A stretch of 8,741 bases of DNA from a virus (taxonomy: Duplodnaviria; Heunggongvirae; Uroviricota; Caudoviricetes), in IMG/VR virus record IMGVR_UViG_2713896788_000008; one strand, written 5' to 3'. Position numbers and translations under genes: made by a program. The notes under the pieces are model-generated. The model saw only the letters and a list, made by a program, of their open reading frames with translations, was not told where the DNA came from and did no database searches. Shown here piece after piece: positions 1 through 8,741 of the stretch; position 1 is the stretch's first letter; every line of letters starts with the position of its first letter.

Positions 1-59
1 TGGCAGAATGTCTGGAGAAAAAAGGACTGTACCGGAGAGCAGCTGAACGATGGGCAAAA

Positions 60-299
60 GTGATGGTACAGCTAAGTGATGACCAGAAAAGAAAAGTGGC
101 GGCACAGAAACGAGCAGAGTGTTTGCGTAAGGCGCGCCGGACTCCGGTTTCACCGGTGAACCTGACCGAAATAAAACAAGCGGTCAACAGACTACATTCT
201 GAGTTGGGAATGGGATTTGAAGAGCGGCGGGTATTCCGACGATATAAAGGGACAGGAGAACAGAATACGTCCGGAAACGCGCGGTCAAAAAAATGCTAA
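60..299 (+). CDS. Small basic hypothetical protein (79 aa from the GTG at 60; ATG at 63). The reading frame is open back to the window start, so the true start may lie upstream of the window.
   Basis: ORF track 60..299; the same frame translated from base 3 has no stop (AECLEKKGLYRRAAERWAKV precedes the annotated start). Lysine/arginine-rich. Followed by a terminator hairpin at 340-362. No family recognised with confidence. Confidence 0.45.
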   Translation: MMVQLSDDQKRKVAAQKRAECLRKARRTPVSPVNLTEIKQAVNRLHSELGMGFEERRVFRRYKGTGEQNTSGNARSKKC

Positions 300-339
300 A
301 AAATATCTGAGAGCGTTATTGCCTGTTACCATAAGAAAA

Positions 340-362
340 AGCGACTTTAGTGGTCGCTTTTT
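340..362. terminator. Bidirectional rho-independent terminator between convergent genes
   Basis: Stem agcgac (340-345), loop tttagtg, stem gtcgct (354-359), with an A-run upstream (336-340) and a T-run downstream (358-362). It sits between the plus-strand ORF ending at 299 and the minus-strand ORF ending at 381. Confidence 0.6.
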
Positions 363-380
363 GTGTCATATATAAGTCGT

Positions 381-711
381 TTAAGTAAACCTGTCTGAAC
401 AGGTTCTCTGGTCGTGTTTGTCTTTGTTGGGTACAAATTGAGAATATTTTTCATTAATTAATCTTCTTCTGCAGGCTTCAATAACCCACGCTGAAAAATT
501 TCCTGAACCTTTCAGATCAAGAGCGATGTTAATTTGTTCAATCATCTGGTTTGGAAATCGGATGTTGCGGGTTGTTGTTNNNNNNNNNNNNNNNNNNNNN
601 NNNNNNNNNNNNNNNNNNNNNNNNNNNNNCGATGTTAATTTGTTCAATCATCTGGTTTGGAAATCGGATGTTGCGGGTTGTTGTTCTGCGGGTTCTGTTC
701 TTTGATGACAT
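381..711 (-). CDS. Ribbon-helix-helix-like small DNA-binding protein, interrupted by scaffold gap 580-629. If the duplicated 56 bp is collapsed, it encodes a 74-aa protein MSSKNRTRRTTTRNIRFPNQMIEQINIALDLKGSGNFSAWVIEACRRRLINEKYSQFVPNKDKHDQRTCSDRFT.
   Basis: ORF track 381..647 (contains X from the N-run). Reverse-complement reading of 686-711 continues in frame into the duplicated block with an ATG at 711..709. The pattern of a beta-strand (NIRFP), helix (QMIEQINIALDL), G-x-N turn and second helix (FSAWVIEACRRRL) is typical of Arc/MetJ/CopG-type RHH proteins. Coordinates as given include the artefactual gap. Confidence 0.55.
524..685. other. Assembly artefact: 56-bp perfect direct duplication (524-579 and 630-685) flanking a 50-N scaffold gap (580-629)
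   Basis: The sequence cgatgttaatttgttcaatcatctggtttggaaatcggatgttgcgggttgttgtt appears immediately before and immediately after the N-run, as expected for two overlapping contig ends joined with a spacer. Confidence 0.8.
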
Positions 712-842
712 AATGTTGCCCCATATTCAGTGTTGCTGATTTGTATTATCTGAAGTTGCTTTTACGTTAATTTGATGCAGATCAATTAATACGATACCTG
801 CGTCATAATTGATTATTTGACGTGGTTTGATGGCGTAGATGC

Positions 843-892
843 NNNNNNNNNNNNNNNNNNNNNNNNNNNNNNNNNNNNNNNNNNNNNNNNNN
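843..892. other. Second scaffold gap (50 N) just upstream of the cos right-end sequence
   Basis: Run of exactly 50 N; no obvious flank duplication here. Confidence 0.9.
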
Positions 893-963
893 TGCACGTT
901 GTGACATGTAGATGATAATTATTATCATTTTGCGGGTCCTTTCCGGCGATCCGACCGGTTACG
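893..963. promoter_or_regulatory. cosQ: Right-end cos segment (cosQ-containing region) of a lambdoid genome
   Basis: gtgacatgtagatgataattattatcattttgcgggtcctttccggcgatccgaccggttacg closely resembles the last ~60 bp of the lambda right end as I recall it (...GGGTCCTTTCCGGTGATCCGACAGGTTACG). The exact cosQ boundaries are not determinable from sequence alone. Confidence 0.6.
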
Positions 964-975
964 GGGCGGCGACCT
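964..975. promoter_or_regulatory. cosN: cosN cohesive-end sequence (12-nt 5' overhang, GGGCGGCGACCT)
   Basis: Exact match to the lambda cohesive end GGGCGGCGACCT, followed by CGCGGGTTTTCGCTATTTATGAAAATTTTCCGG (976-1008), identical to the start of lambda DNA as I recall it. Confidence 0.85.
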
Positions 976-1008
976 CGCGGGTTTTCGCTATTTATGAAAA
1001 TTTTCCGG

Positions 1009-1150
1009 GGAAAATCATGTCGGTACTTCTCGAACATAACTATTTGTTTTTTCTAATATCGAATCCGTAAAGGTCCGACATGAAAACGCCTGAAAAAGTC
1101 ATTTTCGGGCACTTTCATGTCGGACCCTGTATTTGTTGTGAGACTGTTTC
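1009..1150. promoter_or_regulatory. cosB: cosB-like terminase small-subunit binding region with three R elements (R3 1015-1026 direct, R2 1073-1083 inverted, R1 1115-1126 direct) and an AT-rich spacer that is a candidate IHF site
   Basis: tcatgtcggtac (1015-1026), gtccgacatga (1073-1083, exact reverse complement of tcatgtcggac) and tcatgtcggacc (1115-1126). The direct-inverted-direct layout copies lambda's R3-I1-R2-R1, but the motif differs from lambda's CGTTTCC-containing R sites. The R3-R2 spacer 1027-1072 is AT-rich. Confidence 0.7.
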
Positions 1151-1670
1151 ATGAAGGTTAATAAAAAGAAACTTGCCGAAATTTTCAACGTGGATCCGCG
1201 AACGATTGAACGCTGGCAGTCTCAGGGGCTCCCTTGCGTCTCCGGAGGTGGTAAGGGCGTTGAATCTGTATTTGATACCGCCACGGCAATTCAGTGGTAT
1301 GCGCAGAGGGAAGCTGATATCGAAAATGAAAAACTCCGTAAAGAGGTTGAGGATTACAGGGCTGCCAGCGAGGCAGATCTCCAGCCTGGGACTATTGAGT
1401 ACGAATGCCATCGACTTACGCGTGCGCAGGCTGACGCCCAGGAGCTGAAGAATGCCAGAGACTCCGCAGAAGTGGTGGAAACCGCATTCTGTACTTTCGT
1501 GCTGTCACGGATCGCAGGTGAAATTGCCAGTATTCTTGACGGGATCCCTCTCTCAGTACAGCGGCGTTTTCCGGAACTGGAAAACCGACATGTTGATTTC
1601 CTGAAACGGGATATTATCAAAGCCATGAACAAAGCAGCCGCGCTGGATGAACTGATACCGGGGTTGCTGA

Positions 1671-1696
<26 letters not shown>
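1151..1696 (+). CDS. nu1: Terminase small subunit (Nu1-like), 181 aa
   Basis: ORF 1151..1696. From about residue 50 onward (ADIENEKLR...LSEYIEQS) it matches lambda Nu1 as I recall it; the N-terminal winged-HTH region ([36 protein letters not shown]...) is related but clearly divergent. Lies 187 bp downstream of cosN, as in lambda. Overlaps the start of A by 26 bp. Confidence 0.9.
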
Positions 1697-5377
<3,681 letters not shown>

Positions 5378-5397
<20 letters not shown>

Positions 5398-6697
5398 TCT
5401 CCCGCATATTGCCAGCATGGCTTTTAATGAGCCGCTGATGCTTGAACCCGCCTATGCGCGGGTTTTCTTTTGTGCGCTTGCAGGCCAGCTTGGGATCAGC
5501 CGCCTGACGGATGCAGTATCCGGCGACAGCCTGACTGCCGGAGAGGCACCCGCGGCGCTGGCGTTATCCGGTGATGATGACGGACCACGACAGGCCCGGA
5601 GTTATCAGGTCATGAACGGCATCGCCGTGCTGCCGGTGTCCGGTACGCTGGTCAGCCGGACGCGGGCGCTGCAGCCGTATTCGGGAATGACCGGTTACAA
5701 CGGCATTATCGCCCGTCTGCAACAGGCTGCCAGCGATCCGATGGTGGACGGCATTCTGCTCGATATGGACACACCGGGCGGGATGGTGGCGGGAGCATTT
5801 GACTGTGCTGACATCATCGCCCGTGTGCGAGACATAAAACCGGTATGGGCGCTGGCCAACGACATGAACTGCAGTGCAGGTCAGCTGCTTGCCAGCGCCG
5901 CCTCCCGGCGTCTGGTCACGCAGACCGCCCGGACAGGCTCCATCGGCGTCATGATGGCTCACAGTAATTACGGTGCTGCCCTGGAGAAACAGGGCGTGGA
6001 AATCACGCTGATTTACAGCGGCAGCCATAAGGTGGATGGCAACCCCTACAGCCATCTACCGGGTGATGTCCGGGAAACACTGCAGTCCCGGATGGATGCA
6101 ACCCGCCGGATGTTTGCGCAGAAGGTGTCGGCATATACCGGCCTGTCCGTGCAGGCTGTGCTGGATACCGAGGCTGCAGTGTACAGCGGTCAGGAGGCCA
6201 TTGATGCCGGACTGGCTGATGAACTTGTCAACAGCACCGATGCGATCACCGTTATGCGTGATGCACTGGATGCACGTAAATCCCGTCTCTCAGGAGGGCG
6301 AATGACCAAAGAGACTCAATCAACAACTGTTTCAGCCACTGCTTCGCAGGCTGACGTTACTGGCGTGGTGCCAGCGACGGAGGGCGAAAACGCCAGCGCG
6401 GCGCAGCCGGACGTGAACGCGCAGATCACCGCTGCGGTTGCGGCAGAAAACAGCCGCATTATGGGGATCCTCAACTGTGAGGAGGCTCACGGACGCGAAG
6501 AACAGGCCCGCGTGCTGGCAGAAACCCCCGGTATGACCGTGGAAACGGCCCGCCGCATTCTGGCCGCAGCACCACAGAGTGCACAGGCGCGCAGTGATAC
6601 TGCGCTGGATCGTCTGATGCAGGGGGCACCGGCACCGCTGGCTGCAGGTAACCCGGCATCTGATGCCGTTAACGATTTGCTGAACACACCAGTGTAA
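5378..6697 (+). CDS. C: Head maturation protease gpC (S49/ClpP-like serine protease family), 439 aa, GTG start
   Basis: The ORF-track frame 5243..6697 is open from 5243, but the lambda gpC N-terminus (TAELRNLPHIASMAFNEPLMLEP) begins at the GTG at 5378, preceded by the Shine-Dalgarno gaggaggag (5368-5376). That gives 439 aa, as in lambda, and a 20-bp overlap with the end of B. Confidence 0.88.
6092..6697 (+). CDS. nu3: Scaffolding protein Nu3, made by in-frame internal initiation within C (201 aa)
   Basis: In-frame ATG at 6092 (MDATRRMFAQKVS...) shares the C stop codon; the 606-bp length equals lambda Nu3. Established lambda gene arrangement. Confidence 0.7.
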   Translation: MDATRRMFAQKVSAYTGLSVQAVLDTEAAVYSGQEAIDAGLADELVNSTDAITVMRDALDARKSRLSGGRMTKETQSTTVSATASQADVTGVVPATEGENASAAQPDVNAQITAAVAAENSRIMGILNCEEAHGREEQARVLAETPGMTVETARRILAAAPQSAQARSDTALDRLMQGAPAPLAAGNPASDAVNDLLNTPV

Positions 6698-6706
6698 GGG
6701 ATGTTT

Positions 6707-7039
6707 ATGACGAGCAAAGAAACCTTTACCCATTACCAGCCGCTGGGCAACAGTGACCCGGCTCATACCGCAACCGCGCCCGGCGGATTGAGTGCGAAAG
6801 CGCCTGCAATGACCCCGCTGATGCTGGACACCTCCAGCCGTAAGCTGGTTGCGTGGGATGGCACCACCGACGGTGCTGCCGTTGGCATTCTTGCGGTTGC
6901 TGCTGACCAGACCAGCACCACGCTGACGTTCTACAAGTCCGGCACGTTCCGTTATGAGGATGTGCTCTGGCCGGAGGCTGCCAGCGACGAGACGAAAAAA
7001 CGGACCGCGTTTGCCGGAACGGCAATCAGCATCGTTTAA
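6707..7039 (+). CDS. D: Head decoration protein gpD, 110 aa
   Basis: [56 protein letters not shown]...AGTAISIV matches lambda gpD. The ORF track starts two codons earlier at 6701 (MFMTSKE); the lambda-equivalent start is the ATG at 6707. Confidence 0.92.
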
Positions 7040-7059
7040 CCTGACCCTTCATCACTAAA

Positions 7060-7081
7060 GGCCGCCTGTGCGGCTTTTTTT
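7060..7081 (+). terminator. GC stem-loop followed by a T-run between D and E (attenuator or mRNA-stability hairpin)
   Basis: ggccgc (7060-7065), loop ctgt, gcggc (7070-7074), then T7 (7075-7081). Confidence 0.5.
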
Positions 7082-7094
7082 ACGGGATTTTTTT

Positions 7095-8120
7095 ATGTCG
7101 ATGTACACAACCGCCCAACTGCTGGCGGCAAATGAGCAGAAATTTAAGTTTGATCCGCTGTTTCTGCGTCTCTTTTTCCGTGAGAGCTATCCCTTCACCA
7201 CGGAGAAAGTCTATCTCTCACAAATTCCGGGACTGGTAAACATGGCGCTGTACGTTTCGCCGATTGTTTCTGGTGAGGTTATCCGTTCCCGTGGCGGCTC
7301 CACCTCTGAATTTACGCCGGGATATGTCAAGCCGAAGCATGAAGTGAATCCGCAGATGACCCTGCGTCGCCTGCCGGATGAAGATCCGCAGAATCTGGCG
7401 GACCCGGCTTACCGCCGCCGTCGCATCATCATGCAGAACATGCGTGACGAAGAGCTGGCCATTGCTCAGGTCGAAGAGATGCAGGCAGTTTCTGCCGTGC
7501 TCAAGGGCAAATACACCATGACCGGTGAAGCCTTCGATCCGGTTGAGGTGGATATGGGCCGCAGTGCGGCGAACAACATCACGCAGTCCGGCGGCACGGA
7601 GTGGAGCAAGCGTGACAAGTCCACGTATGACCCGACCGACGATATCGAAGCCTACGCGCTGAACGCCAGCGGCGTGGTGAATATCATCGTGTTTGACCCG
7701 AAAGGCTGGGCGCTGTTCCGTTCCTTCAAAGCCGTCAGGGAGAAGCTGGATACCCGTCGCGGCTCTCATTCCGAACTGGAGACAGCGGTAAAAGACCTGG
7801 GCAAAGCGGTGTCTTATAAGGGAATGTATGGCGATGTGGCCATCGTCGTGTATTCCGGACAGTACGTGGAAAACGGCGTCAAAAAGAACTTCCTGCCGGA
7901 CAACACGATGGTGCTGGGGAACACTCAGGCACGCGGTCTGCGCACCTATGGCTGCATTCAGGATGCGGACGCACAGCGCGAAGGCATTAACGCCTCTGCC
8001 CGTTACCCGAAAAACTGGGTGACCACCGGCGATCCGGCGCGTGAGTTCACCATGATTCAGTCAGCACCGCTGATGCTGCTGGCTGACCCTGATGAGTTCG
8101 TGTCCGTACAACTGGCGTAA
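7095..8120 (+). CDS. E: Major capsid protein gpE (HK97 fold), 341 aa
   Basis: MSMYTTAQLLAANEQKFKFDPLFLRLFFRESYPFTTEKVYLSQIPGLVNMALYVSPIV... to ...LMLLADPDEFVSVQLA matches lambda gpE. The ORF-track start at 7068 lies inside the upstream hairpin; the lambda-equivalent ATG is at 7095. Confidence 0.96.
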   Translation: MSMYTTAQLLAANEQKFKFDPLFLRLFFRESYPFTTEKVYLSQIPGLVNMALYVSPIVSGEVIRSRGGSTSEFTPGYVKPKHEVNPQMTLRRLPDEDPQNLADPAYRRRRIIMQNMRDEELAIAQVEEMQAVSAVLKGKYTMTGEAFDPVEVDMGRSAANNITQSGGTEWSKRDKSTYDPTDDIEAYALNASGVVNIIVFDPKGWALFRSFKAVREKLDTRRGSHSELETAVKDLGKAVSYKGMYGDVAIVVYSGQYVENGVKKNFLPDNTMVLGNTQARGLRTYGCIQDADAQREGINASARYPKNWVTTGDPAREFTMIQSAPLMLLADPDEFVSVQLA

Positions 8121-8122
8121 TC

Positions 8123-8147
8123 ATGGCCCTTCGGGGCCATTGTTTTT
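8123..8147 (+). terminator. Stem-loop with TTCG tetraloop and T-run immediately after E
   Basis: atggccc (8123-8129), loop ttcg, gggccat (8134-8140), then tgttttt (8141-8147). Confidence 0.55.
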
Positions 8148-8161
8148 CTGTGGAGGAGTCC

Positions 8162-8560
8162 ATGACGAAAGATGAACTGATTGCCCGTCTCCGCTCGCTG
8201 GGTGAACAACTGAACCGTGATGTCAGCCTGACGGGGACGAAAGAAGAACTGGCGCTCCGTGTGGCAGAGCTGGAAGAGGAGCTTGATGACACGGATGAAA
8301 CTGCCGGTCAGGACACCCCTCTCAGCCGGGAAAATGTGCTGACCGGACATGAAAATGAGGTGGGATCAGCGCAGCCGGATACCGTGATTCTGGATACGTC
8401 TGAACTGGTCACGGTCGTGGCACTGGTGAAGCTGCATACTGATGCACTTCACGTCACGCGGGATGAACCTGTGGCATTTGTGCTGCCGGGAACGGCGTTT
8501 CGTGTCTCTGCCGGTGTGGCAGCCGAAATGACAGAGCGCGGCCTGGCCAGAATGCAATAA
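8162..8560 (+). CDS. FI: DNA packaging accessory protein gpFI, 132 aa
   Basis: MTKDELIARLRSLGEQLNRDVSLTGTKEELALRVAEL... matches lambda gpFI. Shine-Dalgarno ggaggag at 8152-8158. The ORF-track start at 8123 falls inside the hairpin. Confidence 0.9.
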   Translation: MTKDELIARLRSLGEQLNRDVSLTGTKEELALRVAELEEELDDTDETAGQDTPLSRENVLTGHENEVGSAQPDTVILDTSELVTVVALVKLHTDALHVTRDEPVAFVLPGTAFRVSAGVAAEMTERGLARMQ

Positions 8561-8571
8561 CGGGAGGCGCT

Positions 8572-8741
8572 GTGGCTGATTTCGATAACCTGTTCGATGC
8601 TGCCATTGCCCGCGCCGATGAAACGATACGCGGGTACATGGGAACGTCAGCCACCATGACATCCGGTGAGCAGTCCGGCGCAGTAATACGTGGTGTTTTT
8701 GATGACCCTGAAAATATCAGCTATGCCGGACAGGGCGTGCG
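8572..8741 (+). CDS. FII: Head-tail connector protein gpFII, N-terminal fragment (gene runs off the window end); apparent GTG start
   Basis: Translation from the GTG at 8572 gives (M)ADFDNLFDAAIARADETIRGYMGTSATMTSGEQSGAVIRGVFDDPENISYAGQGV, matching the lambda gpFII N-terminus. Shine-Dalgarno gggagg at 8562-8567. Confidence 0.85.
   Translation, partial: MADFDNLFDAAIARADETIRGYMGTSATMTSGEQSGAVIRGVFDDPENISYAGQGV

Follow-up and report, generated by a model that had tools for sequence, protein, structure and literature searches.

The small terminase subunit (Nu1/TerS) encoded on a stretch of 8,741 nucleotides from a tailed virus (IMG/VR record IMGVR_UViG_2713896788_000008; hereafter the window) is a chimera that joins a DNA-binding domain of the phage 21 class to a body of the lambda class, and the cosB site lying directly 5′ of its gene is likewise of the phage 21 class. 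It is very probable that the locus is a natural recombinant packaging module, in which a cassette of about 355 bp from a relative of phage 21 replaced the lambda-type segment of an Sp11-type prophage. What is directly observed is the mosaic organization of the locus with its breakpoints, the correspondence of DNA-binding domain to DNA site and of C-terminus to large subunit, and the wide distribution of the arrangement. The original prediction, made on the letters of the DNA, had read the locus as a co-varying protein–DNA specificity swap. This reading is supported, with the precision that the swapped unit is the ~355-bp cassette, lambda-like on both sides, and that phage 21 is the class to which the N-terminal part of the protein belongs.

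The DNA-binding domain and the cos site

The Nu1/TerS gene (1151–1696, plus strand) comprises 181 codons, and residues 1–164 of its product fall on positions 1–164 of the 164 positions of the Pfam profile PF07471, Phage_Nu1 (E 5.4e-90). Alignment to the two references—lambda Nu1 (NC_001416) and gp1 of phage 21 from its annotated head operon (M81255)—assigns codons 1 to ~71 to the 21 class and codons 73–181 to the lambda class. Over residues 1–60 the protein is identical to phage 21 gp1 at 53 positions out of 60 and to lambda Nu1 at 35; residues 61–80 agree with lambda at 16 of 20 positions and with phage 21 at 15; from residue 81 to residue 181, lambda is matched at 98 of 101 positions and phage 21 at 47. 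Identity along the protein is thus not uniform, and the lambda N-terminus on which the original prediction had based its call of a divergent winged-HTH proved to be correct. The winged-HTH domain itself (codons 1–68; 1151–1354, plus strand) is delimited by sequence matches to the solved structures 7LWR (phage 21 gp1, residues 1–54; 48/54 identical, E 1e-27) and 1J9I (lambda Nu1, residues 1–68; E 1e-23), and 6HN7 (lambda, residues 1–98) was matched as well. In the region of the recognition helix (codons 16–25; 1196–1225, plus strand) all ten residues are those of phage 21, as opposed to six of ten shared with lambda (IRTIQNWQEQ), so that the pair lambda and phage 21, to which the locus had been likened, was the right precedent. 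At positions 20 and 24 Nu1 carries E and S, as does phage 21, where lambda has Q and E. These two residues, together with base pairs 56 and 59 of R3, are the contacts that separate lambda from 21 specificity (PMC4669245). Six differences from phage 21 occur within residues 1–54, four of them between residues 30 and 37, a region that reads SGGGKGV here and SKGSKGI in phage 21.

The cos site is arranged as a complex cosB—R3, an IHF site, an inverted R2, and R1—directly 5′ of Nu1, whose end in turn overlaps the start of gpA. Upstream of cosB lie cosQ (GGGTCCT; 934–940, plus strand), which is common to lambda and phage 21 and whose distance to the right chromosome end matches that of cosQ in phage 21 (OL657228), and cosN with the 12-nt cohesive end GGGCGGCGACCT (964–975, plus strand), recognized by its identity to lambda and marking the left chromosome end, so that bp 1 corresponds to window position 964. 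R3, a predicted TerS binding site of the 21 type (AATCATGTCGGTACTT; 1013–1028, plus strand), agrees with the annotated R3 of M81255 at 15 of 16 positions; it carries G and G at bp 56 and 59 (window positions 1019 and 1022), as in phage 21, where lambda has T and C, and an A at bp 54, where phage 21 has G. The IHF site I1 between R3 and R2 (1035–1049, plus strand) matches the annotated I1 of M81255 at 13 of 15 positions. R2, also of the 21 type, lies in inverted orientation (1070–1085, minus strand) and is identical to the annotated R2 at all 16 positions, with the core CATGTCGG on the minus strand at 1075–1082, and R1 (1113–1128, plus strand) matches its annotated counterpart at 14 of 16 positions, with the same core at 1116–1123. 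The 21-type core is found at all three R sites, against a chance expectation of 0.43 copies per window, and its eight base pairs are an exact match to R2 and R1 of phage 21. No R sequence of the lambda type was found in the window, even when one mismatch was allowed. The altered R elements that had been noted alongside the divergent domain are therefore altered together with it, and towards the same phage.

A further core of the 21 type, CATGTCGGT, lies on the minus strand at 1585–1592, within the lambda-like part of Nu1, and shares a 9-mer with R3. The same bases occur in lambda itself, and this copy is probably due to chance, although the 21-type domain of the chimera could use it as an additional binding site.

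An alternative is that domain and R sites have co-diverged from phage 21 to the point of constituting a third packaging specificity, related to that of phage 21 and no longer interchangeable with it. The cassette DNA is only 87.7% identical to phage 21, four of the six substitutions within residues 1–54 fall in residues 30–37, and R3 and R1 carry one change (A for G at bp 54) and two changes, respectively; many other DNA-binding-domain variants are moreover found on lambda-type bodies (P0004, P0012, P0021). However, the whole recognition helix (residues 16–25), residues 20 and 24, and bp 56 and 59 of R3 are all those of phage 21, and the R core CATGTCGG is exactly that of R2 and R1 in this phage. 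A third specificity thus appears improbable. The ~88% identity of the cassette, the 6 differences in 54 domain residues, and the single change in R3 and two in R1 nevertheless make full cross-compatibility with phage 21 less than certain.

The body of Nu1, the large subunit, and the head genes

The oligomerization and TerL-binding body of Nu1 (codons 73–181; 1366–1696, plus strand) is of the lambda type, with 106 of 109 residues identical to lambda and 53 of 109 to phage 21, and its last 41 residues (141–181) are those of lambda at 40 positions. The earlier view of a body nearly identical to lambda, including the region that contacts gpA, is in this respect borne out. Its partner, the large subunit gpA/TerL (1671–3596, plus strand), overlaps the end of Nu1 and is also of the lambda type, sharing 629 of 641 residues with lambda gpA, and the large subunit gene has a nucleotide identity of ~66% to gene 2 of phage 21. 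W, B, C/Nu3, D, E, and FI follow, and both cos and these left-arm head genes are those of a lambda-like phage. From 1697 to 8741 the window is colinear with lambda without gaps and more than 93% identical to it, except for the first ~200 nucleotides of gpA, and the whole of 964–8741 aligns to lambda bp 1–7781 at 95.9% identity.

The exception at the start of gpA deserves mention in its own right. Seven of the 12 differences between this protein and lambda gpA fall within residues 8–37 (window 1692–1781), beside the substitution G181D at the end of Nu1, and the DNA of 1697–1730 is only 73.5% identical to lambda. The cluster at residues 8–37 lies in the N-terminal part of TerL, where the TerS-binding domain has been located (PMC9026076). 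It may weigh against the recombinant module favored here, and could represent either an interface that has co-adapted or a third, small patch of mosaicism.

Edges of the cassette and other mosaic small subunits

When 466 sites informative between lambda and phage 21 were subjected to a two-breakpoint maximum chi-square test, the 21-like block was placed at 1009–1362 (plus strand), that is, cosB and Nu1 codons 1–71 within a lambda-like backbone. Within this block phage 21 is matched at 117 of 134 informative sites, as compared with 21 of 332 elsewhere, and the resulting chi-square of 300 stands against a top value of 34 in 500 permutations. The nearest lambda-like sites on either side are 1007 and 1366, which sets the breakpoints at 1007/1009 and 1362/1366. 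To the left, the DNA of 458–963 is lambda-like (86–94% identity), and the cosN segment 964–1008 is 100% identical to lambda bp 1–45 and 91% identical to phage 21, the junction coinciding with the end of the conserved cosN/I2 sequence. The DNA of 1009–1340 then has an identity of 87.7% with phage 21 and of 58.1% with lambda, that of 1341–1366 shows mixed identity, and that of 1367–1696 is 94.8% identical to lambda and 57.9% to phage 21. The step in identity forecast at about position 1008 is therefore exact. The second step, forecast near codons 50–60, does exist, but its actual position is at codons 64–72. The stretch ADIENEKLR (residues 55–63), from which onward the protein had been described as lambda-like, is near-constant at the protein level among Nu1, lambda, and phage 21, with differences only at residues 55–56, but its codons are still 21-like in their DNA.

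The right junction zone (1343–1365, plus strand; codons 65–72, EVEDYRAA) carries 21-like and lambda-like informative sites in mixture. Since the motif KEVED is present in further 21-class relatives (P0012 and P0119), the crossover probably lies near codons 71–73, with a relative of phage 21 as the donor, and the fact that the cassette is only ~88% identical to phage 21 at the nucleotide level likewise suggests a relative rather than phage 21 itself. Codons 71–73 are situated 3–5 residues beyond the end of the DNA-binding domain solved in 1J9I (residues 1–68). Both junctions adjoin stretches that are conserved across lineages—cosN on the left and, on the right, a 10-residue coding stretch following the DNA-binding domain—and junctions of this kind would be the product expected from homologous recombination between diverged lambdoid genomes. 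From this pattern we infer the route by which the module may have arisen.

Exchanges at comparable places are found among homologous small subunits. In P0004, a DNA-binding domain of a third type is followed by a 21-like segment (residues 55–100) and a lambda-type C-terminus, and in P0113 the sequence of the window continues to about residue 101 and is then succeeded by a C-terminus of a third type; both proteins change type near residue 100. Further DNA-binding-domain variants are seated on lambda-type bodies in P0004, P0012, and P0021. The mosaics P0004 and P0113 indicate that junctions in TerS recur at conserved islands (residues ~55–72 and 92–102), and by sequence the window belongs to such a family of modular TerS recombinants.

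These data also bear on the possibility that no recombination was involved and that, starting from an ancestor of the lambda type, the N-terminal domain and cosB diverged in place at a faster rate, diversifying selection being one conceivable cause. Determinants of specificity are indeed expected to evolve fast, and a short zone of mixed sites is present at 1343–1365. However, with identities of 87.7% versus 58%, the block is closer to phage 21 than to lambda, its edges are sharp, and the DNA on its flanks is 95–100% lambda-like; the N-terminal module of the window sits on another C-terminal body in P0113; and a KEVED-bearing donor such as P0012 or P0119 accounts for the mixed zone. On the grounds of the sharp steps, the breakpoint statistics, and the occurrence of the module on another body, divergence in place was rejected as highly improbable.

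Genomic context and distribution

The window derives from prophage Sp11 of E. coli O157:H7 Sakai, to which it is 99.83% identical over 893–8741 and 100% identical over 1000–1700. Nu1 corresponds to ECs_2180, with 100% nucleotide identity, and gpA to ECs_2179. The window and Sakai differ at 13 positions; 12 of these mismatches fall within gpA at 2261–3332, which suggests either an allele particular to the strain or recombination over a short tract. Upstream, positions 1–299 correspond to the 3′ end (98 codons and the stop) of pchB (ECs_2182), a virulence regulator of the PchABC/PerC family that lies as cargo between the lysis genes of Sp11 and cos. Two runs of N (580–629 and 843–892) represent scaffold joins rather than missing sequence: 630–685 duplicates 524–579, and mapping on Sakai shows overlaps of 56 bp and 3 bp between the pieces around the runs.

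Of 5426 complete E. coli genomes, 540 (~10%) carry the full chimeric arrangement, counted where at least 80% of 1000–1700 was covered, and dozens of finished O157:H7 chromosomes, those of Sakai and EDL933 among them, match the segment 1000–1700 at 100% identity. The cassette alone, at an identity of at least 95%, was found in 568 records, with non-O157 strains among them, and a further 806 records match it at 80–90%, the band expected of a true segment of the phage 21 type. The Nu1 protein belongs to a cluster of 837 member sequences that bears the RefSeq name “terminase small subunit.” Outside of bacterial chromosomes, the deposited genome of phage IdasGreatGrand (PP925829; source, swamp mud) carries the cassette at 98.5% identity and the junction zone at 100%, with cos and head genes 97–99% identical to the window. 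The presence of the same junction in this genome suggests that the chimera works in a free-living phage. Upstream of position 931 IdasGreatGrand is unrelated to the window, which points to an additional mosaic junction just left of cosQ.

In Sakai, Sp11 itself is defective: integrase and repressor are disrupted, and neither circularization nor replication nor packaging has been detected, yet the genes for its terminase and for morphogenesis remain intact (PMC2669165). The module in Sakai may never act on its own prophage, a point that weighs against the working proposed below. A second Nu1 of the lambda type was sought in the Sakai prophage Sp15, where an unrelated terminase is found, a result that is uninformative as to co-resident specificities; a second place matched by megablast is present in O157 genomes.

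A chimera of reads from two prophages in a draft assembly, or contamination with a laboratory lambda–21 hybrid, was rejected as vanishingly improbable—even though the draft is scaffolded, with two N-runs and duplicated flanks 70 bp upstream of cosN, and lambda control DNA contaminates many public assemblies—since 1000–1700 is 100% identical in the dozens of finished O157:H7 chromosomes, the arrangement recurs in the 540 complete genomes and one phage genome, the two halves diverge from laboratory lambda (95% identity) and phage 21 (88%), that is, by 5–12%, and the surroundings are those of prophage Sp11 with pchB upstream.

Contamination does appear elsewhere in the databases. A scan of GTDB species representatives for relatives of Nu1, aimed at covariation of DNA-binding domain and R sites among species, returned only genes of the lambda type and is uninformative as to the diversity of the 21 type. 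Lambda Nu1 or near-identical copies were met in loci L009–L017, L029–L036, and L038–L039, mostly on short contigs assigned to Kitasatospora, Chromatium, Paenibacillus, Psychrobacter, Bradyrhizobium, Limosilactobacillus, and other taxa. The N-terminal part of L012, the sole one of these loci to be translated, is 100% identical to lambda Nu1, and the occurrence of the gene on such unrelated contigs is most likely contamination with lambda control DNA. Many database proteins (P0042, P0046, P0051, P0089, and others) consist of Nu1 fused to Lom/Ail, tail-terminator, or other phage domains, and look like artefacts of gene calling or assembly near cos or prophage ends.

Relation to lambda, phage 21, and their hybrids

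With phage 21 gp1 and its cosB (M81255; 7LWR) the window shares the recognition helix, the R3–I1–R2–R1 layout, and the R core; it differs from phage 21 in Nu1 residues 73–181, only 53 of 109 of which are identical, and in its lambda-type large subunit. With lambda gpNu1 (NC_001416; 1J9I, 6HN7) it has in common the PF07471 profile, the three-domain plan, cosN, the gpA partner, and the head genes, whereas the DNA-binding domain is identical at only 41 of 68 positions, four of the ten residues 16–25 differ, and R sequences of the lambda type are lacking.

The closest parallel is the lambda–21 hybrid hy51, which combines the cosB of phage 21 and a chimeric 1/Nu1 gene with lambda gpA and is viable and 21-specific (PMC4669245, PMC9026076). 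It goes back to Frackman, Siegele, and Feiss (1985), as described in the same two papers, and demonstrates by experiment the division of labor between the TerS domains; a lambda–21 hybrid with a chimeric TerS placed the specificity of TerL binding in the C-terminal half of the small subunit (PMC9026076). As in hy51, the 5′ part of the gene and cosB are of the 21 type in the window, and the 3′ part and gpA are of the lambda type. In contrast to the window, which is natural, hy51 is a laboratory product whose parents were the type phages lambda and 21. The left end that it took from phage 21 spans ~600 bp and reaches to about mid-gene, covering the 5′ half (PMC4669245), whereas in the window the junction lies 380–402 bp from the left end, at codons 64–72, and the 21-class tract ends at ~399 bp, at codons ~71–72, directly behind the DNA-binding domain. 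Unlike those of hy51, moreover, the parents of the window had diverged from the type phages, by ~12% on the phage 21 side and ~5% on the lambda side. The window would thus be a natural counterpart of hy51 in a viable genome, viability being presumed from the fact that the deposited phage IdasGreatGrand carries the junction. The arrangement was already known in sequence from Sakai Sp11 and in principle from hy51, and it is a case of ordinary phage mosaicism. In the literature searched, which covered the output of the Feiss laboratory in part, no explicit description of a natural chimera of the Sp11 type was found.

Proposed working of the module and implications

For the recombinant module favored here, the following course can be envisaged. 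Through homologous recombination at the two conserved islands, the DNA site would be transferred jointly with the domain that reads it, the cassette bringing cosB (R3, the IHF site I1, the inverted R2, and R1) along with the first ~71 TerS codons and their winged-HTH. The 21-type recognition helix of TerS would then read R sequences of the 21 type, and the lambda-type C-terminal body would assemble with lambda-type gpA. In a last step, gpA would nick the shared cosN and package the DNA into lambda-type proheads. By sequence and by analogy, we infer a packaging specificity of the 21 type coupled to assembly of a lambda-type holoenzyme.

It is tempting to go further and to regard cosB and the DNA-binding domain as a portable “packaging identity,” swapped among lambdoid prophages at the two conserved islands and selected to insulate a terminase from competitors and parasites, rather than as neutral mosaicism. 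We put this forward as a speculation that is rather unlikely to hold. If true, packaging identity would decide which of the co-resident, often defective prophages in polylysogens such as O157:H7 use a given terminase, and it would likewise decide which PICI satellites with Rpp proteins can hijack it.

Apart from this speculation, the finding opens no new question. It provides a natural illustration of the textbook principle that the specificities for DNA recognition and for the large subunit reside in separable halves of TerS, with the recognition half traveling together with its DNA site. For the biology of these prophages, it means that those of the Sp11 type, which are typical of O157:H7, are to be treated as 21-specific rather than lambda-specific despite their lambda-like head genes, and this bears on predicting which helper terminase mobilizes which defective prophage or cos-bearing island.
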